Assembly (NCBI GenBank): GCA_965222955.1
Contig: OZ244974.1
Coordinates: forward strand, 1,344,226-1,408,225
DNA length: 64,000 nt
DNA from: Hyphomicrobiales bacterium
GTDB lineage: Bacteria > Pseudomonadota > Alphaproteobacteria > Rhizobiales > CBDCVD01
Direction of reading: 5' to 3'
Part shown: one piece after another, positions 4,150 through 63,778 of the stretch
How the letters are laid out: each line of letters opens with the position of its first letter
Position numbering within the stretch: position 1 is the stretch's first letter
Program-made: the position numbers and the translations under genes
Notes under the pieces: model-generated
What the model was told of the DNA's origin: nothing
The model's input: only the letters and a program-made list of their open reading frames with translations
The model's database searches: none

Positions 4150-4170
4150 AGAGTGGCGCTCTAGAGCGCA

Positions 4171-7100: not shown

Positions 7101-7233
7101 GTGCCTGCGGATGGGTGTGCAGCCCTTCCATTGGCAGCAGGGATCGCTATATATAGTATCGATATCGTATCAACGGCACGTGGCCATGACGGGGCGGGCT
7201 CGTGAAAGGCGCGGCGCTGCTAGTGCTGTTAGT

Positions 7234-7360
7234 TGTGTAATTTCAACAGGTTGTCCCTGGTAAATCTATCGGGTACGGGGGGCTCCCTGGGGGCAAGGGT
7301 GTTAAGAGGTATCACTTTCCGGTTTGCCTGTCCCGGGAACAAACTGCTGAAAGATCACAG
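7234..7360 (-). repeat. MITE-like family B copy
   Basis: Termini tgtgtaatttcaacaggttgtccctgg and cccgggaacaaactgctgaaagatcacag. Directly abuts A at 7361. Confidence 0.8.
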
Positions 7361-7639
7361 CTAGAGTGTGTCAGGTCTTAATAGAACCATTCTGACGGAG
7401 CGATTTTGCGACAAGATGAACCTTAAGTCTCGCAGGATATAGTGGGGCTATTTTCAAGAGACTTAAGGTTCATCTTGTCGCAAAAGCGCCCGTCCCTTCG
7501 GGTTTGTCGATTGGCGGACGCCCACACCCAAGCCGCTCTTGAGAGATGGGTCGCCATCGCTCTTCGAGCGCCTTGAGCGTGGTTCGCCTCGCCAATCGAG
7601 AAACAGAATTGCTTCTATTAAGACCTGACACGCTCTAGT
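7361..7639 (-). mobile_element. MITE family A, short form (279 bp)
   Basis: About 26-bp TIRs ctagagtgtgtcaggtcttaatagaa / ttctattaagacctgacacgctctag. Internal perfect 22-bp-stem hairpin at 7410-7479. Confidence 0.85.
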
Positions 7640-7775
7640 TTAATGTTGCCGCGTAAGGGACGAGGGGATAAAATCGATGAGCCTTTGCTATGCACAGTGA
7701 TTTGCGCCTGTGCCCCGGTGTAATCGGATATGGACGTGGCGCGGCCTGATAATTGCGTTTTCTGAACCTTGATTT

Positions 7776-10788: not shown

Positions 10789-11293
10789 CCAAGAGGTGAT
10801 AACTGAAATTCGCCGCGCCGCCGCAAGAACCGGGCGCAAAAAGCGCCGTTGAACGCAGCAATATTATTGGCTTATACCAACGGCTCTTATGGTTGACTCA
10901 TAAAGCCGTTGGCAAGGCCGACTGGCCGCCGCGCCTTATGGCGCGTAAGCCTTAGTGGCGTTTGAACGATAACGGTCATTCTTTATGACCGTTAGTATTA
11001 GTTATCGATTGAGAAATAATTGTAAGATGTATTACAATATTATTGGCCTATTAATTGCGCTATATTAACATATATGCACAATTTTTAATAGAATATTTAT
11101 TCCATCACAATCCAGTCCAGCCCAACCTGTTAAGGGAGATTCCTGGTGATTCGTCACAGGGAGTCCGTGTTTACGGCTGGCAATCCTCAAAACAGGATCG
11201 CAGTCGGACAAAACTGTTTGAGGATCGGGCGGAAAAAGCACAGCTCTGCCCCGATCGGAATTTGTGTGGGGGGTATTTTGGATTTCAGGCGTA

Positions 11294-14200
11294 ATGTATT
11301 CCTTTGTTGGCAGACTGTATCTTCTTATAGTGATGGCTTTGGTGCCCGGTGCATTGTTTATGAACGCGGCTCCCGCCGTAGCTGCGAATGTGAGCTGCGG
11401 TGGGGCGAGCGTTGCCAGCCCAAGGCAAAATGATATTGTCTTCATTATTTTTGCAAACACCACTACTTACAAACCCAACGGCGATTACTATGAGTGTGAA
11501 ACCTCTGAGGTGGCGCATGGATCTGTTGATCCGAGAACGCAGACTTTGGCACACAGCGGCGTGCTCATGGTTATTCCTCAAGTTGGTTCCAGTGACGAGA
11601 ACATTTACTTCTCGTTTGCACCGAGTATGCCGGGCGATGGTCAGCCGATCCAGAGGGCCGGGTCATCGTGCAGTAGCGGCACCCTGGACTATTTCCCTGC
11701 TCACGGGCGACAGGATAGTGTGGTGGCGATTAACCTGCCGACAAACAGCAGATGCGATCTCACCATTACAGGCGTCCATGGGAGTGTCTTTACAGGCAAA
11801 CTGCGACGTGTGCGCGATGGATATTCACTCACGGTTATCCGGTTGATCGTTCCGGATCCGGATATGGTCGTTTCCGGTGCTGGCGTGGAGATCAGCAACG
11901 GCGATTCCACGCCGCAGGTAGCGGATAACACGGATTTCGGCTGGGTTGCAGTGGGCGCCACAAAGGAACACACCTTTGAGGTATCCAATAAAAATACCAA
12001 CGGCATGCTGATTTTGCCTATTGATCCTGGCAGCGGCTCGACGCGCGTTCAAATCAGCGACAGTACGAATTTTACCGTCAGCCGGGATTTGCAACCCGCA
12101 GGGCGCGGCAATATCACCCTGCCGTTCAGGATAACGTTCACACCGCGTAGCGCGGGTACCAAAACGGCGACTGTCACAATTCTCAGCAATGACCCCAATA
12201 AAAATCCTTATACCTTTGTCATTCAGGGAGGAAAAAGGACCCTGACGCCGGCAAGCATTGAGTTGGAGCCACAACGGCCCAAAGCAGGGGAGACCGGTGT
12301 CAGAGCGGTTATCAAGTTTAGCGGCCCTCTTACACCGTCACTTTCGGGTACGGCGGATATTACGATCTCCGGAACCGGTGTGGAGAACGGGCCCGTTAAC
12401 TGCCCGAGGGCGGCGAGTTCGAGTTCCCCGTCCGACTATACTTTCATATGTACATTTAACATAGGGGCGGCAGGACGCGATAATATCACCGTTACATTGA
12501 ACAGCTTATCCGATCCCAACTATCAGGGATCAGGCAGCGAGAGGTTCAGCGTCGACGCGGCGGATGCGAGCATTGTGTTCGAACCTGCCCTGAGTTCGGC
12601 GACGGTTGGCACGCCCACGACGATAACGGCGAAGGTGACGGCGCCGGGTGCGGGCAACACGGTACCCGGGAGCGTGACGTTTTCCGGCCTTCCCCCCGGG
12701 GCCAACTGTCCTGGTTCCATTGCGCTGACGCCAACGGCTACGGCCGATGAATTTATCGCCAGTTGCACCTTCACCCCGAGCCAGGCGGGGGTCTACACCA
12801 CCATCGGCGCGGCGTTCACCGCAAGCAGCACGAACTATAATGACGACAGTATCACCGGCCAGAGCCTTAGCGTCGACGCGGCGGATGCGAGCATTGTGTT
12901 CGAACCTGCCCTGAGTTCGGCGACGGTTGGCACGCCCACGACGATAACGGCGAAGGTGACGGCGCCGGGTGCGGGCAACACGGTACCCGGGAGCGTGACG
13001 TTTTCCGGCCTTCCCCCCGGGGCCAACTGTCCTGGTTCCATTGCGCTGACGCCAACGGCTACGGCCGATGAATTTATCGCCAGTTGCACCTTCACCCCGA
13101 GCCAGGCGGGGGTCTACACCACCATCGGCGCGGCGTTCACCGCAAGCAGCACGAACTATAATGACGACAGTATCACCGGCCAGAGCCTTAGCGTCGACGC
13201 GGCGGATGCGAGCATTGTGTTCGAACCTGCCCTGAGTTCGGCGACGGTTGGCACGCCCACGACGATAACGGCGAAGGTGACGGCGCCGGGTGCGGGCAAC
13301 ACGGTACCCGGGAGCGTGACGTTTTCCGGCCTTCCCCCCGGGGCCAACTGTCCTGGTTCCATTGCGCTGACGCCAACGGCTACGGCCGATGAATTTATCG
13401 CCAGTTGCACCTTCACCCCGAGCCAGGCGGGGGTCTACACCACCATCGGCGCGGCGTTCACCGCAAGCAGCACGAACTATAATGACGACAGTATCACCGG
13501 CCAGAGCCTTAGCGTCGATGGGGCGGATGCGAGCATTGTGTTCGAACCTGCCCTGAGTTCGGCGACGGTTGGCACGCCCACGACGATAACGGCGAAGGTG
13601 ACGGCGCCGGGTGCGGGCAACACGGTACCCGGGAGCGTGACGTTTTCCGGCCTTCCCCCCGGGGCCAACTGTCCTGGTTCCATTGCGCTGACGCCAACGG
13701 CTACGGCCGATGAATTTATCGCCAGTTGCACCTTCACCCCGAGCCAGGCGGGGGTCTACACCACCATCGGCGCGGCGTTCACCGCAAGCAGCACGAACTA
13801 TAATGACGACAGTATCACCGGCCAGAGCCTTACCGTCAACAGGGCGGCTGTGCGAGTGGTGACAACTATCGGCCTGGATCCAAGCGAGCCTGAGGTTGAT
13901 CGGCAGGTTACCATGCGCATAACGTTTTCGCGTCCTGCGGGTGTGCCGTTTTCAGGAACCTTCGATATCTCCCTTGCGGGAACCGGCTCGCCAGCCGCCG
14001 CAATCGGCGCCACGGACTGCAAGAGAACCGGCAATATCATTCCTCCACAAGGCGGGACATTTACCTGCACATTTACCCCGACGTCGCCGGGTGAACTGAA
14101 TTTGCAGGTGCTGAACCTGGCCGATCCGCGTTATACGTTTGCCCAAACCACTGTTTCGCTCAGGGTTACGGTTATACGCAATGTCGCCAGGCTGACCACG

Positions 14201-15301
14201 CAGATGGTGGTGGATTATCTGGGGGATCGGAACGCCATATTGCTTGCCAACGGGGTGAATATGAACAACCGCCTGAACCGTCTGAGCAAAGGCAGAGGCG
14301 GACAGATGGGGGGCAATATCAGCGTTAATCTGGGCCGGTCTGAAGATGCGACGGCGTCGGCGTTTTCCATGGATTTGCGTACCTTCCTGCCTGGCGATGT
14401 TAGTATTACCGGCGATACCATCACATTCGCCGCCAGCACGATACGCCTGATGCGTTCGGGGGCCTTCGGCGCCGATTCAGATGATCGTGATGTGGGGGAG
14501 TCTGTGCTCGAGGGAGGCGACGACCGCGGGGCCGTTAGCTCGGGGCCGCGTTGGGATGTCTGGATTGAAGGGCGTATTTCGCGCTTTGACAGCAGCAGCA
14601 ACGACGGCACACTCGGTGTTGTCTATCTTGGGGCGGACTATCTGATCACGCCGAGCATGCTCATCGGCCTGATGACCCAGTACGACTGGCTGAAGAAAGA
14701 TTACGACACCAACGGCCGCATCAAGGGGCAGGGCTGGATGGTCGGGCCCTACGCGGCGGCTCGTCTCGACGAGAGACTGTTTCTGGAGGTACAGGTGCGG
14801 GGCGGCCGCTCAAGCAACGATATCACGCCCATCGGCACTTATACGGACAGGTTCAAGACGACGCGCTGGTACGTCAGCGGCAGGTTAAACGGCGACTTCG
14901 ATTACGGCGACTGGACAATCCGTCCGGGCGTATCAGCGCAATATCTGGCCGAGAAACAAAAGGGGTATACGGACAGTCTGGGCAATTCCATAGCGGCGCG
15001 GACGATATCGCAGGGCGATATTCGCGTGGGTCCGCGCGTTGCATACACCTATGGCCTTGGCGATGGGGGTGCGATTATTCCCTGGGCGGAGTTCGAGGGG
15101 GTCTACACGTTTGGCAGCAAGGACAAGTTCAGCACGGGTGGTTATGCGTTCGATATTCACGGGTTATCGGGGAGTGTCGAGGCGGGTCTTGACTGGCGCA
15201 CGGCGACGGGGGCGGTGTTCTCGCTGTCGGGCTCCTACGATGGCATCGGCTCGGGCTCATCGAGCTATGGGGCGCGTGCGCGTGTCGATATTGCATTTTA
15301 G
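11294..15301 (+). CDS. Autotransporter outer-membrane protein with Ig-like repeat passenger
   Basis: Signal peptide (MYSFVGRLYLLIVMALVPGALFMNAAPAVAA), ASH/choice-of-anchor-like domain, four 107-aa repeats, C-terminal beta-barrel ending RARVDIAF. Start chosen at ATG 11294. Confidence 0.8.
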   Translation: MYSFVGRLYLLIVMALVPGALFMNAAPAVAANVSCGGASVASPRQNDIVFIIFANTTTYKPNGDYYECETSEVAHGSVDPRTQTLAHSGVLMVIPQVGSSDENIYFSFAPSMPGDGQPIQRAGSSCSSGTLDYFPAHGRQDSVVAINLPTNSRCDLTITGVHGSVFTGKLRRVRDGYSLTVIRLIVPDPDMVVSGAGVEISNGDSTPQVADNTDFGWVAVGATKEHTFEVSNKNTNGMLILPIDPGSGSTRVQISDSTNFTVSRDLQPAGRGNITLPFRITFTPRSAGTKTATVTILSNDPNKNPYTFVIQGGKRTLTPASIELEPQRPKAGETGVRAVIKFSGPLTPSLSGTADITISGTGVENGPVNCPRAASSSSPSDYTFICTFNIGAAGRDNITVTLNSLSDPNYQGSGSERFSVDAADASIVFEPALSSATVGTPTTITAKVTAPGAGNTVPGSVTFSGLPPGANCPGSIALTPTATADEFIASCTFTPSQAGVYTTIGAAFTASSTNYNDDSITGQSLSVDAADASIVFEPALSSATVGTPTTITAKVTAPGAGNTVPGSVTFSGLPPGANCPGSIALTPTATADEFIASCTFTPSQAGVYTTIGAAFTASSTNYNDDSITGQSLSVDAADASIVFEPALSSATVGTPTTITAKVTAPGAGNTVPGSVTFSGLPPGANCPGSIALTPTATADEFIASCTFTPSQAGVYTTIGAAFTASSTNYNDDSITGQSLSVDGADASIVFEPALSSATVGTPTTITAKVTAPGAGNTVPGSVTFSGLPPGANCPGSIALTPTATADEFIASCTFTPSQAGVYTTIGAAFTASSTNYNDDSITGQSLTVNRAAVRVVTTIGLDPSEPEVDRQVTMRITFSRPAGVPFSGTFDISLAGTGSPAAAIGATDCKRTGNIIPPQGGTFTCTFTPTSPGELNLQVLNLADPRYTFAQTTVSLRVTVIRNVARLTTQMVVDYLGDRNAILLANGVNMNNRLNRLSKGRGGQMGGNISVNLGRSEDATASAFSMDLRTFLPGDVSITGDTITFAASTIRLMRSGAFGADSDDRDVGESVLEGGDDRGAVSSGPRWDVWIEGRISRFDSSSNDGTLGVVYLGADYLITPSMLIGLMTQYDWLKKDYDTNGRIKGQGWMVGPYAAARLDERLFLEVQVRGGRSSNDITPIGTYTDRFKTTRWYVSGRLNGDFDYGDWTIRPGVSAQYLAEKQKGYTDSLGNSIAARTISQGDIRVGPRVAYTYGLGDGGAIIPWAEFEGVYTFGSKDKFSTGGYAFDIHGLSGSVEAGLDWRTATGAVFSLSGSYDGIGSGSSSYGARARVDIAF
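12551..13834 (+). repeat. Four tandem 321-bp (107-codon) repeats inside the autotransporter
   Basis: gtcgacgcggcggatgcgag recurs at 12551, 12872 and 13193, and as gtcgatggggcggatgcgag at 13514. Exact 321-bp period. Copies 1-3 look identical by eye. Confidence 0.95.
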
Positions 15302-15316
15302 AGCGTCGGGCGATTA

Positions 15317-15420
15317 ATACCAGCGGTATTGGCGTTTTGTACGCGCTGACGTGTGTATCGTGCTGATAGGACAACGGTTTTAATCTGCATCAGGAGTCAA
15401 ACGCAAAGCCCCCTGGTATA
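15317..15420 (+). mobile_element. MITE family C copy (about 101 bp) with TAA target duplication
   Basis: taccagcggtattggcg...cccctggta flanked by taa on both sides. Begins 16 nt after the autotransporter stop. Confidence 0.85.
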
Positions 15421-15458
15421 AGTTGCAACAATAACCCCGGTTCCGGATAAGAGAAAGA

Positions 15459-15514
15459 CCAGAGCGTGTCAGGTCTTAACAGAATTGATTCTATTAAGAC
15501 CTGACACGCTCTGG
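15459..15514. mobile_element. Family A 'solo TIR pair' (both TIRs, no internal sequence)
   Basis: ccagagcgtgtcaggtcttaacagaattgattctattaagacctgacacgctctgg. Confidence 0.8.
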
Positions 15515-15651
15515 TGCGGCCCTTGCCGCAGATGGCCGGCAGCACCCGATGAATTTACCAGGGACAGCCTGTTTAAATTATACCAGTTTAATCTTTCAAC
15601 AGGTTGCTCTCAAGGTGGCAGGTCTGAAGTCAGGGTAGTTGCAGTCCTCTT
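15515..15651. repeat. Family B, permuted (right half followed by left half)
   Basis: cttgccgcagatggccggcagcacccgatgaatttaccagggacagcctgtttaaatta, then aatctttcaacaggttgctctcaaggtggcaggtctgaagtcagg. Confidence 0.65.
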
Positions 15652-15754
15652 ATACCAGGGGGCTTTGCGTTTGACTCCTGACGCAGATTAAAACCGTTGT
15701 CCTATCAGCACGATACACAAGTCAGCGTGTACCAAAAGCCGATACCGCTGGTAT
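15652..15754 (-). mobile_element. MITE family C copy, inverted relative to 15317..15420, with TTA duplication
   Basis: taccagggggctttgcgtttgactcctgac...gataccgctggta flanked by tta on both sides. Confidence 0.85.
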
Positions 15755-16073
15755 TATTACGTTCAGGGGGCGATGCAAAGGCGAGATCCTCTGCACGGAC
15801 CGGTGCAAACAACATCCGGCCTCAATCACACGAGAGCGGGTAAAACCACACAAGAGCAATCACTGATGGAATCATGGCAGATATTTAGCACAACAGCCGA
15901 TTCCCGATTTTAACGTTATTGATATCCACAAGAGCCTGGAGCCCCGGCAAGTTTTTTGCCCTGTCCTGCATCCCAATTTTACGCGGGTTTCATCGTCCTT
16001 GCCACAGCAAGGAGATTGATAGCGCTGCCGGAATGGCGAAAGGCACTTTTCCAGCGGCGACGAATCAGCCACG

Positions 16074-16430
16074 TTAGAGCGTGTCAGGTCTTGATAGAAG
16101 CAATTTTCGTTTCTCAATTGGCGAGGCGATATCCACGCTCAAGGCGATCGAAGAGCGATGGCGACCCATCTCTCGAGAGCGGCCTGGGTGCGGGCGTCCG
16201 CCAATCGGCAAACCCGAAGGGACGGGCGATTTTGCTATGGATTTCAGGGCGATCAGCTTTATGGCGTTAGCATTACCCTTGGCAAAACGGGTACAGCTAA
16301 CGCCAGGCTGATCCAATATGAACCTTAAGTCTCTTGGAAACAGCCCCACTATATCCTGCGAGACTTAAGGTTCATCTTGTCGCAAAATCGCTCCGTCAGA
16401 ATGGCTCTATCAAGACCTGACACGCTCCAG
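16074..16430 (+). mobile_element. MITE family A, long form (357 bp, carries sub-element G)
   Basis: TIRs ttagagcgtgtcaggtcttgatagaa / ctatcaagacctgacacgctccag. Internal G segment atttcagggcgatcagctttatggcgttagc...gctaacgccaggctgatc. Confidence 0.85.
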
Positions 16431-16530
16431 GGTCGGTGATGTGCGATGGGCGTGATGCATAAGATTTTAACACACGCATCCGCCACAAGTGCATTAGTCA
16501 TCGAATCTGACACCGAATCCGGTGGCAAAC

Positions 16531-19900: not shown

Positions 19901-20643
19901 ACGAGGACGGGCGCATCGGCGAGATTTTCATCGATATGCACAAGGAGGGGGCGGCGTTTCGCTCCCTGATGAACAACTTCGCCATTGCCGTCTCTTTGGG
20001 ACTGCAATATGGTGTACCTCTTGAGGAATATGTCGATGCCTTTACATTTACCCGGTTTGAGCCTGCGGGTCTTGTACAGGGCAATGAAACGATCAAGAAT
20101 GCGACGTCGATTCTTGACTATATTTTCCGCGAACTGGCTATTTCCTATCTCAGCCGCCATGATCTTGCCCATGTCGATCCGGGCGATATTGGTTCCATGA
20201 CAATAGGTGCTGGCGTGGCGCAGGACAAGCCGCGCACCAAGGGGGTGCCGACCGAGCGGCTTGTTTCAAAGGGGCTGACTCGCGGGCGCGTCGGGGAGAA
20301 AAATCTGATGGTGGTCGGCGGTGCATCGCGGGAAGCGAATCCGGCGCATCTTTTGCAGGCGCGCGCCCGCACCACCCTTGCCGGTACGGCTGCGGTGGTG
20401 AAGGCGGATCAGCCTGTTGGCGATGCCGGCATGCTTGTTGACGGCGATACCGCAGAGGATTCTGAAACGGATGTACCCTTGCGGGCCGATGCGGCGCCGG
20501 AGCCGGCGGACAAGCAGCGCGCCATTGCCCGTATGAAGGGCTATGAGGGAGAGGCTTGTACTGAGTGCGGGAATTTTACGATGGTGCGCAATGGCACCTG
20601 TCTGAAATGCGACACATGTGGCTCCACCAGCGGCTGCAGTTAG
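16912..20643 (+). CDS. nrdJ: Vitamin B12-dependent (class II) ribonucleotide reductase
   Basis: 1243 aa. Typical class II NrdJ sequence throughout, including [21 protein letters not shown] and a C-terminal Cys-rich tail ([28 protein letters not shown]). Confidence 0.95.
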
Positions 20644-20692
20644 TTGAATGTGAAAAAGTCCCCCGGCTTCGCCTCGGTCTGCTTTTCCCGCT
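20644..20692 (+). repeat. Family D/E element, D-end fragment, truncated by the C array
   Basis: ttgaatgtgaaaaagtcccccggcttcgcctcggtctgcttttcccgc begins directly after the nrdJ TAG. Confidence 0.75.
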
Positions 20693-20693
20693 A

Positions 20694-21356
20694 ATACCAG
20701 CGGTATTAGCGCTTTGTACGCGCTGACTTGTGTGTTGTGCTGACAAGACAACGGTTGTAAACCGGGTCAGGAGTCAAACGCAACGCCCCTGTATACCAGC
20801 GGTATTAGCGTTTTGTACGCGCTGACTTGTGTGTTGTGCTGACAAGACAACGGTTGTAAACCGGGTCAGGAGTCAAACGCAACGCCCCTGTATACCAGCG
20901 GTATTAGCGTTTTGTACGCGCTGACTTGTGTGTTGTGCTGACAAGACAACGGTTGTAAACCGGGTCAGGAGTCAAACGCAACGCCCCTGTATACCAGCGG
21001 TATTAGCGTTTTGTACGCGCTGACTTGTGTGTTGTGCTGACAAGACAACGGTTGTAAACCGGGTCAGGAGTCAAACGCAACGCCCCTGTATACCAGCGGT
21101 ATTAGCGTTTTGTACGCGCTGACTTGTGTGTTGTGCTGACAAGACAACGGTTGTAAACCGGGTCAGGAGTCAAACGCAATGCCCCTGTATACCAGCGGTA
21201 TTAGCGTTTTGTACGCGCTGACTTGTGTGTTGTGTTGACAAGACAACGGTTGTAAGCCGGGTCAGGAGTCAAACGCAACGCCCCTGTATACCAGCGGTAT
21301 TGGCTTTTTGTACGCGCTGACTTGTGTGTTGTGCTGACAAGACAACGGTTGTAAAC
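20694..21356 (+). repeat. Tandem array of family C units, exact 99-bp period, 6 full units plus a 69-bp partial
   Basis: ataccagcgg starts at 20694, 20793, 20892, 20991, 21090, 21189 and 21288. Junctions read cccctgtataccagcgg. Confidence 0.95.
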
Positions 21357-21359
21357 TAG

Positions 21360-21624
21360 CTGTAATCTTTCAGCAGGTTGTTCCCGGGACAGGCATACCG
21401 GTAGTGACACCTCTTGCGCCCTTGCCCCCAGGGAGGCCATACCGGGCCATTCATCTGATCATCGCTTTTTTTCGATTTCTCCTGCGCTGTCAAGGGTTTA
21501 AGAACCGCCAGAGGCGGCGCGAAGCGCCCTTGACAACGCAGGATAAATCGAACACCTCTAATGATCAGATGAATGGCCCCCTGCGCCCGAAGGGTTTACC
21601 AGGGACAACCTGTTGAAATTACAG
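21360..21624 (+). repeat. Family B copy carrying a nested F palindrome
   Basis: ctgtaatctttcagcaggttgttcccgggacagg ... ccagggacaacctgttgaaattaca, interrupted by F at 21447-21576. Confidence 0.8.
21447..21576. repeat. Family F cruciform palindrome (130 bp)
   Basis: ccattcatctgatcatcgc...gtcaagggtttaagaaccgccagaggcggcgcgaagcgcccttgac...aatgatcagatgaatgg, a long near-perfect inverted repeat. Confidence 0.85.
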
Positions 21625-21698
21625 CGCTGGTGGTTCGATTCCAGCATTTGCACTTTTCAACCACGGGCTTGCATGCAAATGTTAGAATCAGAGAACCA
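21625..21698. repeat. Family J palindrome with tRNA T-arm-like ends
   Basis: ggtggttcgattccagcatttgca...tgcaaatgttagaatcagagaaccac. Similar copies at 45691 and 35971. Confidence 0.55.
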
Positions 21699-21974
21699 CC
21701 AGAGCGTGTCAGGTCTTAATAGAAGCAATTCTGTTTCCCGATTGGCGAGGCGACCCACGCTTGAGCCGATCGACATGCGATGTGGGCGCATCTCATGAGA
21801 TCGGTTTGAGCGTGGGCGCCCGCCAATCGACAAACCCGAAGGAACGGGCGATTTTGCACCAATGCCGGCGCAAGGTTTCTTGAAAATAGTCCACTATGTC
21901 CTGCGAAACTTTGCCTGGCCTTGTCACAAAATCGCTCCGTCAGAATGATTCTATTAAGACCTGACACGCTCTAG
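21699..21974 (+). mobile_element. MITE family A, short form (276 bp), second internal subfamily
   Basis: TIRs ccagagcgtgtcaggtcttaatagaa / ttctattaagacctgacacgctctag. The interior differs from the 7361 copy (ccgatcgacatgcgatgtgggcgcatctcatgagatcgg). Confidence 0.85.
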
Positions 21975-22101
21975 CTGTAATCTTTCAGCAGGTTGTTCCG
22001 GGGACAGGCAGGTCTGAAGGAACACCTCTTGCGCCCTTGCCCCCAGGGATGGCCAGCAGCATCCGATGGGTTTTTCGAGAACACTCCGTTGACATTGCAC
22101 A
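21975..22101 (+). repeat. Family B copy (right arm degenerate)
   Basis: ctgtaatctttcagcaggttgttccggggacaggcaggtctgaagg ... ttcgagaacactccgttgacattgcaca. Abuts A at 21974/21975. Confidence 0.7.
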
Positions 22102-22118
22102 TCCAGGACGCGATCACA

Positions 22119-29467: not shown

Positions 29468-29478
29468 TATTGCGGGGA

Positions 29479-29807
29479 CTAGAGCGTATCAGGTCTTAAC
29501 AGAATTGCTTCTATTAGAGCGTGTCAGGTCTTAATAGAATCAATTCTGTTTCCCGATTGGCGAGGCGGACCACGCCCAAGGCGATCGAAGAGCGATGTTT
29601 ATCCATCTCTCGAGAGCGGCTTGGGCGTGGACGTCCGCCAATCGGAAACCCGAAGGGACGGGCGCTTTTGCACCAATATGGGCCTTAAGTCTCTTGCAAA
29701 TAGCCCCACTATATCCTGCGAGACTTAAGGCCCATCTTGTCGCAAAATCGCTCCGTCAGAATGGTTCTATTAAAACCTGACACGCTCTAAGACCTGACAC
29801 GCTCTAT
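29479..29807 (+). mobile_element. Family A full copy (29515..29789) nested inside a family A solo TIR pair
   Basis: The outer right TIR ttctatta|agacctgacacgctcta is split. The inner copy gagcgtgtcagg...cctgacacgctc is flanked by ta on both sides. Confidence 0.85.
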
Positions 29808-29884
29808 CTGACCATTGCTTTTTTCCGGCGGCTCTCGCGGTGTGTCAAGGGTTTAAGAACCGCTGGAAGCGGCGCGAAGCGCCC
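29806..29884. repeat. Family F, left-half fragment
   Basis: atctgaccattgcttttttccgg...gtcaagggtttaagaaccgctggaagcggcgcgaagcgccc. Confidence 0.6.
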
Positions 29885-29897
29885 AAATAAGGAAATT

Positions 29898-30104
29898 ATA
29901 CCAGGGGGCTTTGCGTTTGACTCCTGGCTCAGATTAAAACCGCTGTCTTCTCAGCACGATACACAAGTCAGCGTGTACAAAACGCCAATACCGCTGGTAT
30001 TATACCAAGGGGCTTCGCGTTTGACTCCTGACCCGGTTTGAAACCGTTGTCTTATCAGCACGATACACAAGTCAGCGTGTACAAAACGCCAATACCGCTG
30101 GTAT
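29898..30104 (-). mobile_element. Two tandem full-length family C copies sharing TTA
   Basis: tta[taccaggggg...ccgctggta]tta[taccaagggg...ccgctggta]tta. Confidence 0.85.
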
Positions 30105-30249
30105 TACACGCAAGCGGAGCGCCAGGACGCGGGCGTTATCAGCCCAACGCGAAGCCGGATACACGATCGCACGCAGCCTTGCATCAAATTGGCGCTTGCC
30201 ATGGAAAGAAGGTCCATATACTTGACAGCGCATGATAAATAGAACACTT

Positions 30250-30604
30250 CTAGAGCGTGTCAGGTCTTAATAGAAGCAATTTTCGTTTCTCGATTGGCGA
30301 GGCGAACCACGCCCAAGGCGATCGAAGAGTGATGGCGACCCATCTCTCGAGAGCGGCTTGGGCGTGGGCGTCCGCCAATCGGCAAACCCGAAGGGACGGG
30401 CGCTTTTGCTATAGATTTCAGGGCGATCAGCTTTATGGCGTTAGCATTACCCCTGGCAAAACGGGTACAGCTAACGCCAAGCTGATCTGGTATGAACCTT
30501 AAGTCTCTTGCAAACAGCCCCACTATATCCTGCGAGACTTAAGGTTCATCTTGTCGCAAAATCGCTCCGTCAGAATGATTCTATTAAGACCTGACACGCT
30601 CTAA
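30250..30604 (+). mobile_element. MITE family A, long form (355 bp, with G)
   Basis: ctagagcgtgtcaggtcttaatagaagc ... gattctattaagacctgacacgctctaa. Confidence 0.85.
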
Positions 30605-30666
30605 TGATCAGATGAATGACCACCTGTATCCGACGGGTTTGTAAGAACACCCTGTTAAATGAACAC
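30603..30666. repeat. Fragment: F right tip plus B right half
   Basis: taatgatcagatgaatgaccacctgtatccgacgggtttgtaagaacaccctgttaaatgaaca. Confidence 0.55.
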
Positions 30667-34535: not shown

Positions 34536-34591
34536 CTAGAGCCTTTCAGTTTTTAAGTGAAGCAATTCTGTTGAGACCTGACACGCTCCAG
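34536..34591. mobile_element. Family A solo TIR pair, left TIR degenerate
   Basis: ctagagcctttcagtttttaagtgaagcaattctgttgagacctgacacgctccag. Confidence 0.6.
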
Positions 34592-35364: not shown

Positions 35365-35825
35365 TTAGAGCGTGTCAGGTCTTATACCAGCGGTATTGGC
35401 GCTTTGTACACGCTGATTTGTGTATAGTGTTGATAAGACAACGGTTTTAAGCCAAGTCAGGAGTCAAGCGCAAAGTCCCTTGGTATTAATAGAAGCAATT
35501 TTCGTTTCCCGATTGGCGAGGCGATACCCAGGTTCAAGACGGTCGAAGAGCAATGGCGAACCACCTCTCGAGAGCGGCCTGGGCGTGGGCGTCCGCCAAT
35601 CGGCAAACCCGAAGGGACGGACGCTTTTGCTATGGATTTCAGGGCGATCAGCTTTATGGCGTTAGCATTACCCTTGGCAAAACGGGTACAGCTAACGCCA
35701 GGCTGATTCAAGATGAACCTTAAGTCTCTTGCAAACAGCCCCACGATATCCTGCGAGACTTAAAGTTCATCTTGTCGCAAAATCGCTCCGTCAGAATGAT
35801 TCACTTAAGACCTGACACGCTCCAG
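35365..35825 (+). mobile_element. MITE family A long form with a family C copy (35385..35485) nested in its left TIR
   Basis: ttagagcgtgtcaggtcTTA[taccagcgg...cccttggta]TTAatagaagcaattttcg ... tcacttaagacctgacacgctccag. Confidence 0.85.
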
Positions 35826-35950
35826 GTGTAATCTTTCAACAGGGTGTTCCCGGGACGGGCAAATCTGACGTTACCCCTCTTGCGGTCCTTGCCGCAGATG
35901 GCGAGCAGCAAGGCCCCCTGCACCCGATGGGATTTTTGAGAGCAGCCTGT
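35826..35950 (+). repeat. Family B copy, right arm truncated
   Basis: gtgtaatctttcaacagggtgttcccgggacggg...cacccgatgggatttttgagagcagcctgtt. Confidence 0.75.
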
Positions 35951-35970
35951 TAAGACCCGACACGCTCCAG
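35951..35970. mobile_element. Lone family A TIR remnant
   Basis: aagacccgacacgctccag. Confidence 0.55.
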
Positions 35971-44452: not shown

Positions 44453-44532
44453 CTTGAGCGGTGTTTTCTCACTGTTTCAAATGAAGAAAAGTGCGCTGAG
44501 CGTAGCGAAGCACCATTCTTCACAATCAACTA
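44453..44532 (+). repeat. Family D/E, E-end fragment
   Basis: cttgagcggtgttttctcactgtttcaaatgaagaaaagtgcgctgagcgtagcgaagcaccattcttcacaatcaact. Confidence 0.65.
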
Positions 44533-46227: not shown

Positions 46228-46731
46228 ATGAGACGAAACTTTCGAACACATTTGCGCGCGGCAGGGGTGCTGTTGCTGGTGGTCGTACTGGCCGCCTGTG
46301 ACAATGAGTCTGACATTTCTCATCAGGCACCCCCGGGGGTTCACGGGCAACCGCTGGAAATCACGACCGTATCAGGTACCTATCGTTATGCTGTTGAGAT
46401 TGCCGATAGTCCGCAGAAGCGTTCACAAGGACTGATGTATCGTCGGCAGTTGGCGCCGGATCGGGGTATGTTGTTCCTTTACCGACGGGATCAGCCGGTT
46501 TCCATGTGGATGCGCAACACCTACGTCGCCCTGGATATGATATTTATTCGCGCAGACGGGGTTATTCATCATGTGCACAGCGATGCGGAGCCGCTATCGG
46601 AAGCGCTTATCCGGTCCCATGGAGATGTGCGCGCGGTTCTGGAAGTCAATGCCGGCGAGAGTGCCCGCATCGGTGTGAAGCCTGGCGATATGGCGCGGCA
46701 TCCCCTGTTGAACGCAGGGCCAGAGCGTTAA
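46228..46731 (+). CDS. DUF192 family protein (lipoprotein signal)
   Basis: MRRNFRTHLRAAGVLLLVVVLAACDN lipobox. GLMYRRQLAPDRGMLFLY, MWMRNTYVALDMIFI and VLEVNAG are typical of DUF192. Start trimmed to ATG 46228. Confidence 0.8.
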   Translation: MRRNFRTHLRAAGVLLLVVVLAACDNESDISHQAPPGVHGQPLEITTVSGTYRYAVEIADSPQKRSQGLMYRRQLAPDRGMLFLYRRDQPVSMWMRNTYVALDMIFIRADGVIHHVHSDAEPLSEALIRSHGDVRAVLEVNAGESARIGVKPGDMARHPLLNAGPER

Positions 46732-46874
46732 GCACGTGGTTTAATGTTTAATATTAATACGTTATTATGTGGCGGGTGTTCTCTTGTCTGGTGGTCTTTG
46801 CCATCTTTATTGCATGGCATCGAATGGGAGTTTACAGGGCGGTGCAAGAGCGCTAAAACACCATAGCGCGTTTT

Positions 46875-46951
46875 CGGGGTATAGCTCAGCCTGGTAGAGC
46901 ACTGGTTTTGGGAACCAGGGGTCGCATGTTCGAATCCTGCTGCCCCGACCA
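46875..46951 (+). tRNA. tRNA-Pro (anticodon UGG)
   Basis: Cloverleaf folded by hand: acceptor cggggta/tgccccg, D-arm gctc/gagc, anticodon stem ctggt/accag with loop ttTGGga, T-loop ttcgaat (one T-stem mismatch), encoded CCA. Confidence 0.85.
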
Positions 46952-47011
46952 TATGCGCTTTTGTTTGAAGAACGTGTCTTGTTGCGCGATTCGCGCGATG
47001 TTTCGGCTGGA

Positions 47012-47127
47012 TGCGCAATTTTAGTGGAGGTGTGTTCTCAAGAAAAGCCATCGGGTGGGATTGAACGGCCCGGCACGAACTTGCTGCACCATGGGTTTAC
47101 CAGGGACAACCTTTTGAAATTACACAG
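47012..47127 (+). repeat. Family B copy (short)
   Basis: tgcgcaattttagtggaggtgtgttctcaag ... ccagggacaaccttttgaaattacacag. Abuts A at 47128. Confidence 0.65.
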
Positions 47128-47404
47128 CTAGAGCGTGTCAGGTCTTAATAGAATCAATTCTGTTTCCCGATTGGCGAGGCGAACCACGCCCAAGGCGATC
47201 GAAGAGCGATGGCGACCCATCTCTCGAGAGCGGCCTGGGCGTGGGCGTCCGCCAATCGGAAACCCGAAGGGACGGGCGCTTTTGCACCAACATGAACCTT
47301 AAGTTTCTTGAAAATAGCGCCACTATATCGTGCGAGACTTAAGGTTCATCTTGTCGCAAAATCGCTCCGTCAGAATGCTTCTATTAAGACCTGACACGCT
47401 CTAG
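47128..47404 (+). mobile_element. MITE family A, short form (277 bp)
   Basis: ctagagcgtgtcaggtcttaatagaatc ... gcttctattaagacctgacacgctctag. Inverted relative to the copy at 47890. Confidence 0.9.
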
Positions 47405-47474
47405 GGACTGATTTGTCCTTATTTTATTGGGAAAAATAGACCGAGGCGAAGCCGAGGGACTTTTTCCATTCAAC
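47405..47474 (-). repeat. Family D/E, D-end copy facing the NDUFS4-like gene
   Basis: ggactgatttgtccttattttattgggaaaaatagaccgaggcgaagccgagggactttttccattcaac. Confidence 0.8.
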
Positions 47475-47498
47475 AAAATCAGACGCAGGAAAGGTGCA

Positions 47499-47813
47499 AT
47501 GACGGCTCGCATTTATCGTCCGGCAAAGACCGCCATGCAATCCGGGCGGCGCAAGAGTTCGCGCTGGCTTTTGGAGTATGAGCGGCAGACACCCATGCAT
47601 GTTGATCCACTGATGGGATGGCAGGGCTCGTCGGATATCTCGGGTCAGGTTCGCTTGACGTTTTCCTCGCGCGCTGCTGCTGAAGAGTATGCCAGGCGTC
47701 ACAATCTGGATTATACGCTCATTGATACGCCGCCGGGTGAAGGTCGCAGCCGGCGCGGCGTATCATATGCGGATAACTTTCGCCACGATCGCAAGATCCC
47801 GTGGACACATTGA
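47499..47813 (+). CDS. ETC complex I subunit conserved-region (NDUFS4-like) protein
   Basis: 104 aa. MTARIYRPAKTAMQSGRRKSSRWLLEYE...DPLMGWQGSSD...LTFSSRAAAEEYARRHNLDY. Start trimmed to ATG 47499. Confidence 0.85.
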   Translation: MTARIYRPAKTAMQSGRRKSSRWLLEYERQTPMHVDPLMGWQGSSDISGQVRLTFSSRAAAEEYARRHNLDYTLIDTPPGEGRSRRGVSYADNFRHDRKIPWTH

Positions 47814-47816
47814 TGA

Positions 47817-47889
47817 GTTGAATGTAAAAAAGTCCGTCGGCTTCGCCTCGGTCTGCTTTTTCCCGATGAACACAAGAACAAATCAGTCC
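47817..47889 (+). repeat. Family D/E, D-end of a full element that continues at 48245 after the A insertion
   Basis: gttgaatgtaaaaaagtccgtcggcttcgcctcggtctgctttttcccgatgaacacaagaacaaatcagtcc. Starts 3 nt after the stop codon. Confidence 0.8.
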
Positions 47890-48244
47890 CTAGAGCGTGT
47901 CAGGTCTTAATAGAACCATTCTGACGGAGCGATTTTACTATAGATTTCAGGGCGATCAGCTTTATGCGTTTCGCATTACCCTTGGCAAAATGGGTACAGC
48001 TAACGCCAAGCTGATCTAATATGAACCTTAAGTCTCGCAGGATATAGTGGGGCTATTTTCAAGAGACTTAAGGTCCATATTGGTGCAAAAGCGCCCGTCC
48101 CTTCGGGTTCCCGATTGGCGGACGCCCACGCCCAAGCCGCTCTTGAGAGATGGGTCGCCATCGCTCTTCGATCGCTTTGAGCCTGGGTATCGCCTCGCCA
48201 ATCGAGAAACAGAATTGCTTCTATTAAGACCTGACACGCTCCAG
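47890..48244 (-). mobile_element. MITE family A, long form (355 bp, with G), inserted in the D/E element
   Basis: ctagagcgtgtcaggtcttaatagaaccattctgacgg ... gcttctattaagacctgacacgctccag. Confidence 0.9.
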
Positions 48245-48459
48245 GGCGGCCCGGCGGACAGGTTTGGCATCCATGCTGATCAATCATGACCGTTGGTCAT
48301 GATTGGAAATGGCAAGGTATTGCCCACAAATGCGCCAAAACCTTGCAATAAAGCGAGGAGGAAACAAAGCGCCGCGCCTTCTTGAACTTTGTTTTCTCAT
48401 TGTTTCAGATGAAGAAAAGTACACGGAGTGTAGCGAAGCATTTTTCTTCACGATCAACT
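48245..48459 (+). repeat. Family D/E, middle and E-end (H-I-E part), ends 6 nt before tRNA-Arg
   Basis: ggcggcccggcggacagg...atcatgaccgttggtcatgat...gttttctcattgtttcagatgaagaaaagtacacgg...tttttcttcacgatcaact. Confidence 0.75.
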
Positions 48460-48465
48460 GACGAT

Positions 48466-48542
<77 letters not shown>

Positions 48543-48674
48543 GATGTGCCGTTTGTTGCTATACCTCCATTTCGTCTTGCGGGTCACTTTGCTTGAAGGC
48601 GACGGGCTTGGGCGGTTTTCTCTCTTTCGCCGTGGGTGTTGGCAGTTCGGACGCCACTTAGCAATCACCACCCA

Positions 48675-48864
48675 TGACACGCTCCAGGAACCGCCCAAAG
48701 GTGCGCCGATCCATGATCTGGAATTCACTCTGGGGGGCCGACAAACCGTACAACGCCTGCAGCACCAGCACCTTGAACATCATGACGCTGTCAAATGGTG
48801 GTCTGCCGCCCTGAGGGCCGGATTTATAATCGAGGGCGGCATTCAGACTGTCGCGAAATATCTT
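48675..48864 (-). pseudogene. IS5-family transposase fragment (second part of the N-terminal DUF772-like domain), 3'-truncated
   Basis: Hand translation gives IFRDSLNAALDYKSGPQGGRPPFDSVMMFKVLVLQALYGLSAPQSEFQIMDRRTFGRFL. Homology stops at a 14-nt family A TIR tip (tgacacgctccagg, 48675-48688). Confidence 0.7.
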
Positions 48865-49015
48865 GTTGAATGCGAAAAAGTCCCTTGGTTTGGCCTCGGT
48901 CTACTTTTTCCCAATAAAATAAGGACAAATCAGTCCCTGGGGCGTTCCGGCGGACTGATTTGGCATTCATATTGACCGATCATGATCAATGGCCATGATC
49001 GGAAATTGCAAGGCT
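48865..49015 (+). repeat. Family D/E element, D-end plus H part (left portion of the copy inserted in the transposase gene)
   Basis: gttgaatgcgaaaaagtcccttggtttggcctcggtctactttttcccaataaaataaggacaaatcagtccctgg ggcgttccggcggactgattt...ccgatcatgatcaatggccatgatcgg. Confidence 0.8.
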
Positions 49016-49519
49016 ATACCAGCGGTATTGGCGTTTTGTACGCGCTGACTTGTGTGTCGTGCTGATAAGACAACGGTTGTAAACCAGTTCAGGAGTCAAA
49101 CGTAAGTCCCTTGTATACCAGCGGTATTGGCGTTTTGTACGCGCTGACTTGTGTGTCGTGCTGATAAGACAACGGTTGTAAACCAGTTCAGGAGTCAAAC
49201 GTAAGTCCCTTGTATACCAGCGGTATTGGCGTTTTGTACGCGCTGACTTGTGTGTCGTGCTGATAAGACAACGGTTGTAAACCAGTTCAGGAGTCAAACG
49301 TAAGTCCCTTGTATACCAGCGGTATTGGCGTTTTGTACGCGCTGACTTGTGTGTCGTGCTGATAAGACAACGGTAGTAAACCAGTTCAGGAGTCAAACGC
49401 AAAGCCTCTTGGTATTATACCAGCGGTATTGGCGTTTTGTACACTCTGACTTGTGTGTCGTGCTGATAAGACAATGGTTGTAAATCAGGTCAGGAGTCAA
49501 ACGCAAAGCCCCTTGGTAT
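49016..49519 (+). repeat. Tandem array of 5 family C units (three 99-bp junctions, one full-length junction with TTA)
   Basis: ataccagcgg starts at 49016, 49115, 49214, 49313 and 49417. The array sits inside the D/E element. Confidence 0.95.
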
Positions 49520-49657
49520 TATGCACAAATGCGCCAAAACCTTGCAATACGCCCAGGCGAAAACAAAGCGCCGCGCCTACTTGAGCGTTGTTTTCTCATT
49601 GCTTCAAATGAAGAAAAGTACACGAAGAGGAGCGAAGCACCTTTCTTCACGATCAAC
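49520..49657 (+). repeat. Family D/E element, I-E part (right portion of the same copy)
   Basis: tgcacaaatgcgccaaaaccttgcaata...gttttctcattgcttcaaatgaagaaaagtacacgaag...cacctttcttcacgatcaac. Confidence 0.8.
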
Positions 49658-49792
49658 TATCTCGAAGTCAACCACGCGCAGCAACGGCTCCAGCGGATCG
49701 CTTGTGTCGCTCAAGCGCCGATACCGATCATCAGGATCAAAAAAATCCCCGCTGAGCAGGCATTGAACCCTCCGAAGCTCTTTCCAATTCAA
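49658..49792 (-). pseudogene. IS5-family transposase fragment (N-terminus)
   Basis: MNWKELRRVQCLLSGDFFDPDDRYRRLSDTSDPLEPLLRVVDFE from ORF 49604..49792. Its continuation lies in the E-end repeat. Confidence 0.65.
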
Positions 49793-56318: not shown

Positions 56319-56387
56319 AATAGTCCATTGATTGCGAAAGCCTGATCGAAACAGAGCACGTGCATACGGGACGTGACATGCTCTAAC

Positions 56388-56504
56388 TGTGATCTTTCAG
56401 CAGGTTGTTCCCGGGACAGGCAGGTCCGAAGGTACATCTCTTGCGCCCTTGCCGCCAGCAGCACCCGATGGGTTTATCAGGGATAACCTGTTCAAAGACT
56501 ACAT
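56388..56504 (+). repeat. Family B copy, preceded by a 15-nt A-TIR remnant (56373-56387)
   Basis: gtgacatgctctaac | tgtgatctttcagcaggttgttcccgggacagg...cagggataacctgttcaaagactacat. Confidence 0.8.
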
Positions 56505-56778
56505 CTAGAGCGTGTCAGGTCTTAATAGAATCAATTCTGTTTCTCGATTGGCGAGGTGACCCACGTTTGAGCCGATCGACATGCGATGCGGGCGCATCTC
56601 ATGAGATCGGTTTGAGCGTGGGCACCCGCCAATCCGAAACCCGAAGGGACGGGCGATTTTGCACCAATGCCGGCGCAAAGTCTCTTGAAAATAGTCCACT
56701 ATGTCCTGCGAAACTTTGCTTGGCCTTGTCACAAAATCGCTCCGTCAGAATGGTTCTATTAAGACCTGACACGCTCTA
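56505..56778 (+). mobile_element. MITE family A, short form (274 bp)
   Basis: ctagagcgtgtcaggtcttaatagaatc ... ggttctattaagacctgacacgctctaa. Confidence 0.9.
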
Positions 56779-56920
56779 ACAGATGATGACAAAACCTGCC
56801 ATTCACCAGTAGATGACACGCTCTATATCAATATTCACTTAAAATACAATCGTTTGCGGGCCACGGGGCAAGGGGTGTACGATCTTGCGCCAGGGCGTCC
56901 CAACGGCCGGCGGCGGTGGA

Positions 56921-59064: not shown

Positions 59065-59290
59065 GTTGAATGTGAAAAAGTCCCTCGGCTTCGCCTCGGT
59101 CCACTTTTTCCCAATAAATAAGGACAAATCAGTCCCTGGGGCGGCCCGGCGGACTGATTTGGCATTCATATTGACCGATCATGACCAATGGCCATGATCG
59201 GAAATCGCAAGGTTCTACACGCAAATACGCCAAAACCTTGCAATAAGCCCAGGCGAAGACAAAGCGCAGCACCTTTCTTCACGATCAAAC
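59065..59290 (+). repeat. Family D/E element, nearly complete (internal deletion in the E part), flanked by acaatga(g)
   Basis: gttgaatgtgaaaaagtccctcggcttcgcctcggtcc...aaatcagtccctgg ggcggcccggcggactgattt...ccttgcaataagcc...cacctttcttcacgatcaa. Confidence 0.75.
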
Positions 59291-63684: not shown

Positions 63685-63702
63685 TGCGTTGTATTTGGCT
63701 AT

Positions 63703-63778
63703 ATATTTCAGGGCGATCAGCTTTATGCGTTTCGCTTTGCGCCTGGCAAGACGGGTAAAGCGAAACACATGCTCCAGA
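63703..63778. repeat. Sub-element G, stand-alone copy
   Basis: tatatatttcagggcgatcagctttatgcgtttcgctttgcgcctggcaagacgggtaaagcgaaac. The same module is embedded in long-form A copies. Confidence 0.65.

Follow-up and report, generated by a model that had tools for sequence, protein, structure and literature searches.

RESULTS

Two nests of repeats bracket an NDUFS4-like gene

We analyzed a 64,000-nucleotide (nt) stretch of contig OZ244974.1 from an uncultured Hyphomicrobiales bacterium (assembly GCA_965222955.1, positions 1,344,226 to 1,408,225; hereafter the window), in which a small respiratory-chain gene lies between two inverted arms made of repeated sequence. The gene, an NDUFS4-like "ETC complex I subunit" gene, is intact, and its product matches the Pfam family PF04800 (NDUS4) with an E value of 1.4e-29 over profile positions 1-95 of 96. 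Two inward-facing copies of a repeat that we call D bracket it, and each of them adjoins, at an identical junction, a copy of a second repeat, A. The original prediction had placed the gene between inward-facing D ends, 24 nt before the ATG and 3 nt past the stop codon, and had described the identical junction and the mutually inverted A copies; all of these coordinates hold, and the junction and the inversion were confirmed in both arms. Together, D and A form inverted arms of 347 and 428 bp. From one tRNA gene to the other, the locus reads as follows (MITE, miniature inverted-repeat transposable element; TIR, terminal inverted repeat):

46875-46951, plus strand: tRNA-Pro (TGG), the conserved upstream neighbor of the gene (ARAGORN and Rfam tRNA)
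46952-47083, no strand: unique, nonrepeated ancestral part of the spacer between tRNA-Pro and the gene, without a strong match elsewhere in the window
47084-47127, plus strand: F repeat of about 40 nt (GGGTTTACCAGGGACAACCTTTTGAAATTACACAG), ending at the CTAG occupied by A-left
47128-47404, plus strand: A-left, a short-form MITE (element proper, 47131-47401) with 35-nt TIRs and TA duplications inside CTAG
47405-47474, minus strand: D-left, a 70-nt D module (hairpin module plus GGAC..GTCC end)
47475-47498, plus strand: unique 24-nt leader, with a Shine-Dalgarno-like AGGAAAGG ahead of the ATG, as read from the sequence
47499-47813, plus strand: NDUFS4-like gene, 315 bp, 104 amino acids (PF04800)
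47817-47889, plus strand: D-right, the 73-nt D end of a D/E element, beginning 3 nt past the stop codon
47890-48244, minus strand: A-right, an A MITE in the opposite orientation to A-left, occupying the CCCTAGGG site of D/E
47937-48017, minus strand: G, about 80 nt, nested within A-right as a third level of nesting (from alignment)
48245-48459, plus strand: E, the rest of the D/E element, stopping 6 nt short of tRNA-Arg
48466-48542, plus strand: tRNA-Arg (TCT), the conserved downstream neighbor of the gene (ARAGORN and Rfam tRNA)

The upstream neighbors of the locus are DUF192 and lexA. The spacers on the two sides of the gene measure 547 nt (tRNA-Pro to gene) and 652 nt (gene to tRNA-Arg), of which about 156 nt and 9 nt, respectively, are not repeat. 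The unique part of the upstream spacer has one weak match in the window (its positions 54-106 are about 80% identical to 2772-2821), and no second copy of the leader was found there.

In both arms, the junction between D and A reads acaaatcagtccCTA followed directly by GAGCGTGTCAGG. As had been predicted, uninterrupted copies of D/E differ at this position: those at 48865 and 59065 read CCCTGGGG. Also as predicted, D/E resumes past A in the right arm, where E continues to position 48459 and matches 48941-49013 plus 49515-49658, 59140-59275, and 44453-44531. On the left, the F repeat lies beyond A-left and D/E is not resumed; therefore, the left copy is the 70-nt D module only, and its GTTGAATG end faces the gene. 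A-left and A-right share three inverted matches, I1 (169 nt, 93%), I2 (79 nt, 90%), and I3 (55 nt, 95%), and in the alignment the 78-nt arm length difference is accounted for by G, which is present in A-right and absent from A-left. All four A termini at the locus match the TIR consensus GAGCGTGTCAGGTCTTAATAGAA exactly. Of the two duplications that flank A-right, the right-hand one reads CA and the other TA.

The gene keeps its place in related genomes

For comparison, we used 80 Hyphomicrobiales loci that encode relatives of the gene product with 48-65% amino acid identity and come from Brucella/Ochrobactrum, Rhizobium, Agrobacterium, Phyllobacterium, Hoeflea, and several metagenome-assembled genomes. 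A tRNA-Arg(TCT) gene lies 3' of the orthologue on the same strand in 78 of the 80 loci, after a spacer of 10-180 nt (median, 50), and a tRNA-Pro(TGG) gene lies less than 1 kb upstream in 56 (median, 90 nt); both tRNAs flank the orthologue in 54. DUF192 is found just upstream in many of these loci, including that of the nearest relative found by a scan of genome contigs (L001, 65% amino acid identity), and the orientation of the gene is the same as in its relatives. None of the 80 loci contained A, D, or E sequence. Given the same tRNA-Pro/gene/tRNA-Arg order in relatives that are free of these repeats, the position of the gene is ancestral and the repeats are newcomers. The nonrepeat upstream spacer of 156 nt, which includes the 24-nt leader, falls inside the range of 25-862 nt seen in the relatives.

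Self-comparison revealed no second copy of the gene in the window. A search of 5.8 billion proteins returned nothing between 65% and 100% identity to the gene product, and the exact protein has a single member in the database, on one contig.

The arms appear to have separate histories

We aligned the ten full A copies of the window to compare the arms with each other and with unlinked copies. Identity between A-left and A-right is 92.4% (277 nt with 21 substitutions), lower than the 94.2% that A-left shares with each of the unlinked copies at 7361 and 30250 and the 93.5% that it shares with the one at 29515; for A-right, comparison with the copy at 7361 gives 93.5%. The two arms were mutual nearest neighbors in 27 of 500 bootstraps. 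The D modules give the same picture, with 86.3% identity between D-left and D-right versus 94.4% between D-left and the copy at 59065 and 93.1% between D-left and the copy at 48865. These higher identities to unlinked copies, the presence of G on the right only, and the different outer flanks (E versus F) argue that the arms are not sister copies and have separate histories. Two other nearby pairs of A copies in the window, 15462/16075 and 29515/30250, bracket no recognizable gene.

Family A is a MITE that appears to target TA within CTAG

Family A has 35-nt TIRs and two long internal hairpins and occurs in a short form of 274-280 nt and in a form of about 355 nt that carries G (overall range, 274-356). 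At least 10 full copies, together with fragments, are present in the window, and 28 A termini match GAGCGTGTCAGGTCTTAATAGAA with at most 4 mismatches. The only coding content is short open reading frames (ORFs) internal to the repeat. These repeat families are real and go beyond chance matches.

Six of the ten full copies are flanked by TA on both sides within YTAR (four CTAG and two CTAA), and the other four have CA or TG on at least one flank, three of them differing at one base and one at both. The G and the C next to the flanking TA are invariant across the A copies; therefore, they are the first and last bases of A, and the duplication is 2 bp. A 4-bp CTAG duplication of the IS5 kind was ruled out for A on the same grounds and by the CTAA sites, which fit the TA model only.

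The window contains 24 CTAG sites (observed/expected, 0.63), of which 14 are found at A termini, so that roughly half of the sites are occupied. Where D carries A, in two copies, the site is CCCTAGGG; in the two empty copies it is CCCTGGGG, without TA. That A hit the same D site twice would thus follow from a strict and scarce CTAG/TA target embedded in other repeats, and neither a special hot spot nor a duplication would be needed for it. The original prediction had offered a strong A hot spot hit twice independently as one of two readings; the independent insertions stand, and the CTAG/TA target would take the place of the hot spot.

Some groups of the IS5 family also use TA/YTAR targets. 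By its structure, A is a MITE, and its targeting looks IS630-like; the type of transposase, as judged from the flanks, would probably be that of the IS630 family. For IS630, Table 1 of PMC2577343, citing Tenzen and Ohtsubo 1991, lists a 2-bp duplication at a CTAG motif. In the window, no pair of A termini spans a transposase gene or a transposase-sized interval, and the window, the metagenome scan, and the plasmid collection yielded no IS630-family transposase whose ends match those of A. The exact A terminal repeat had 0 matches in metagenome contigs, and plasmid searches with A, an Aminobacter element, and a Phyllobacterium end recovered MITE-sized copies only and no autonomous partner. An IS5-family gene beside the A-like copy of Aminobacter was ruled out as the partner by its unrelated ends.

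Homologues of A do occur outside this genome. CTAG-flanked elements of 277-285 nt are carried by Aminobacter niigataensis pcAMD1 (L081, 2501-2777) and Phyllobacterium sp. 628 p_2 (L082, 2466-2750); their hairpin core is 72-77% identical to A, and their terminal repeats have diverged. Rhizobium leguminosarum plasmids match only via the terminal repeats of the Aminobacter element. In a 7-sequence alignment over three genera, compensatory changes affect 39 of the 111 pairs predicted. We came across no published account of this wide A superfamily in Hyphomicrobiales, and the literature held nothing specific on these sequences or on rhizobial CTAG MITEs.

Within the window, the sequence after a CTAG at 4161, GAGCGCATCAGATC, matches the A terminal repeat in degenerate form and may represent an old remnant of A that the annotated copies do not include. 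G, which is palindromic, lies inside A at 47937-48017, 16227-16319, 30401-30488, and 35622-35707 and stands alone at 63693-63764. It sits in one arm of the internal palindrome of A in the copies at 16075, 30250, and 35482, and at the mirror-image site, inverted, in A-right, which suggests that G is a third site-specific small element.

Repeats fill much of the window

Self-comparison places 16.9% of the window in 28 repeat clusters (for example, 7230-7647, 15315-16433, 20627-22104, 29477-30659, 35378-35951, and 56370-56790), and most of the sizeable intergenic regions carry nests of A, F, D/E, G, and a 99-nt unit. For a bacterial chromosome, such a repeat content is very high. It is thus unsurprising that a 315-bp gene has repeats on either side. 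The D hairpin occurs with different continuations. F has at least 12 copies, and its end adjoins an A terminus at 7364, 21971, 35822, 47131, and 56508 and a degenerate A-like end at 34536; the F-end CTAG sites at 21356 and 59388 are still empty. Rfam searches at gathering thresholds and at E values of up to 5 returned two tRNAs only.

The 99-nt unit, T99 (beginning TATACCAGCGGTATTGGCGTTTTGTACGCGCTGACTTG), has about 19 copies, either single (15317, 15665, 29911, 30006, 32396, 35383, and 45370) or in tandem arrays of 5-7 units (49015-49515 and 20694-21359), and the array at 49015-49515 splits the neighboring D/E copy (48865-49658). T99 has no match in Rfam. A related repeat of about 103 nt occurs three times in 12 kb of the nearest relative, L001 (3505, 9379, and 11481).

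About 110 nt downstream of tRNA-Arg, at approximately 48655-48865 on the minus strand, lies a remnant of the N terminus of an IS5-family transposase (PF05598 DUF772, E value 5e-9), which is 57-68% identical to IS5-family genes on Mesorhizobium, Aminobacter, and Azospirillum plasmids and holds a 14-nt match (TGACACGCTCCAGG) to the A end. Elsewhere, a 1345-amino-acid ORF (11264-15301, plus strand) contains four near-identical tandem repeats of about 100 amino acids, which account for the repeat block at 12537-13850, and its C-terminal region resembles an outer membrane autotransporter domain.

DISCUSSION

The NDUFS4-like gene is very probably a vertically inherited resident of this locus, with its two spacers filled independently by nested, nonautonomous repeats. 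Downstream of the gene, a D/E element would have inserted, and an A MITE, in a copy that bears G, would later have entered it; upstream, a D module and an F repeat would have met at a CTAG, which also took an A MITE. A would have moved in trans, presumably by means of a DDE transposase that behaves like IS630, cutting at the TA inside CTAG and duplicating this dinucleotide. Because CTAG is scarce and about half of its occurrences are taken by A, the CTAG inside the D palindrome CCCTAGGG would have been hit in both of the D copies that have it, and the CCCTGGGG copies would have been spared. The mirror symmetry would then be a by-product of two independent nests and not the mark of a transposable unit; given two D-A nests, a mirror arrangement amounts to two orientation coincidences, for which the chance is about 1 in 4. 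The anatomy of the locus, its TA/CTAG flanks, the synteny, and the fact that the arms are not sisters have been shown; we infer the type of transposase, the order of the insertions, and a lack of function of the repeats at this locus.

Several points weigh against this account. The window is 64 kb, or 2%, of a genome of about 3.39 Mb, so the phylogeny of copies is sparse; the difference between 92.4% and 94.2% identity corresponds to about 5 nt, and gene conversion between dispersed copies could blur sisterhood. D and A have the same relative orientation in the two arms, as would also be the case after duplication of a D-A unit. The right-hand duplication of A-right, CA, needs one later substitution. 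An autonomous transposase with matching ends was found neither in the window nor in metagenome contigs or plasmids, and no available genome exceeds 65% protein identity; hence, the comparison offers no empty-site allele from a near relative.

A different view of the locus would be that the repeats have been exapted as regulatory architecture for the gene and the downstream tRNA-Arg, with the D hairpins or the arms acting as terminators, insulators, an outward promoter, a double-stranded RNA (dsRNA) stem of about 350 bp that RNase III cuts in read-through transcripts, or substrates for recombinational inversion of the gene; we consider this unlikely. The idea draws on the fact that only 24 nt of native sequence precede the ATG and that tRNA-Arg now lies 652 nt from the gene, compared with 10-180 nt in relatives, so that expression of both would have to start inside the repeats or pass through them. 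At 47402-47431 on the plus strand, a hairpin followed the terminator pattern, with a T tract, and A folds into long hairpins, of whose predicted pairs 39 of 111 show compensatory change across the three genera. However, no sigma-70-like promoter is predicted in 46700-48700, terminator-like matches number 3 against a shuffled mean of 2.7, and the fold z-scores of D range from -2.55 to +0.48 (-0.13 for D-right, downstream of the gene), so that the D folds show no clear gain in stability over shuffles; on these grounds, D was rejected as an intrinsic terminator or promoter. The gene also has the orientation seen in its relatives, so no inversion has been fixed, and the repeats are spread over 28 clusters regardless of the identity of the neighboring gene.

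An inverted duplication, in which one D-A unit was copied in inverted orientation across the gene, for example through template switching or recombination, with later divergence of the arms, was the other reading in the original prediction and now seems improbable. The identical D-A junction in both arms, the same orientation of A relative to D, and the symmetrical closeness of the arms to the gene (24 nt and 3 nt) are what it would produce. Yet each component of the arms has closer relatives within the 64 kb, and sisterhood was recovered in only 27 of the 500 bootstraps. G is found in A-right only, and past A the sequence goes on as E in the right arm and as F in the left. If A requires the CTAG inside D, an identical junction would arise in any case. 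Comparison of the arms, which the original prediction had proposed as a check, found them as far apart as unlinked copies.

Quite improbable as well, in our judgment, is that the 1.1 kb from 47128 to 48244 forms a latent composite or an invertible, dsRNA-forming cassette that switches the complex I accessory gene and tRNA-Arg. Were it so, cells that express a cognate transposase or recombination functions could excise, invert, or silence the NDUFS4-like gene, and transcripts that read through from tRNA-Pro to tRNA-Arg would fold into a stem of about 350 bp around the gene.

That the inverted A copies or the D-A arms are the ends of a composite transposon or Pack-MITE that captured the gene or can move it, an architecture that the original prediction had seen here, is very improbable: the copies have all four terminal repeats intact and might serve as paired ends, and the title of a reference cited in PMC2577343 has IS630-associated composite transposons transposing, but past capture is refuted by the conserved, repeat-free tRNA-Pro/gene/tRNA-Arg position in relatives, the gene is single copy in the window, and the protein database holds no paralogue above 65% identity. 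For a Pack-MITE, moreover, the cargo would be a fragment inside one MITE, and here it is a complete gene between complete, two-ended MITEs. The outer flanks of the whole A-to-A segment, TA and CA, are uninformative since single A copies carry such flanks, and they would look alike for one unit and for two separate insertions. The original prediction had named two findings that together would speak against mobility, namely, relatives with the gene in the same place but free of repeats and arms that diverge as much as random copies; both were observed.

The independent filling of the two spacers by nested repeats can be set beside several known systems. Family A resembles MITEs of the IS630/Tc1-mariner type in its long TIRs, its noncoding nature, its many copies, and its insertion at TA within CTAG or CTAA, and it differs from IS630 in having no IS630-family transposase with matching ends in the three collections searched. 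Nezha, Chunjie, Correia, and RUP/BOX are intergenic, hairpin-forming MITEs whose presence or absence varies between related genomes (PMC3184786). The repeats in the window are likewise small, nonautonomous, hairpin-folding, and placed between genes, beside conserved orthologues. However, their density is unusually high (about 17% of 64 kb), they are nested to three levels (G in A in D/E), and we found no description of these families in the literature.

The BIMEs of enterobacteria and the RIMEs of rhizobia are mosaic intergenic repeats, and the D hairpin, E, F, and T99 modules similarly combine in varying order here. IS1397 inserts into the loops of BIMEs, that is, inside palindromic repeats, and A likewise lands repeatedly at a fixed position inside another repeat; in contrast to IS1397, this fixed position would be explained by the CTAG/TA target and not by recognition of the structure of the host repeat. 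As in composite transposons and Pack-MITEs, a gene lies between two similar elements that are inverted with respect to each other; unlike in those, the cargo is ancestral and single copy in the window, the arms are not sisters, and there is no sign of capture or movement.

The locus thus represents a commonplace phenomenon, set in a genome with unusually many repeats. A genome packed with site-specific MITEs can mimic a gene-carrying transposon, and a comparison of synteny and of the identities among copies quickly resolves such a case. For this uncultured Hyphomicrobiales bacterium, the window reveals an exceptional load of small nested repeats, and an IS630-like MITE appears to be steered into other repeats by the rarity of CTAG. 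At the NDUFS4-like gene, these insertions have pulled apart a gene/tRNA-Arg pair that is otherwise 10-180 nt apart, which raises the question of how the two are expressed.

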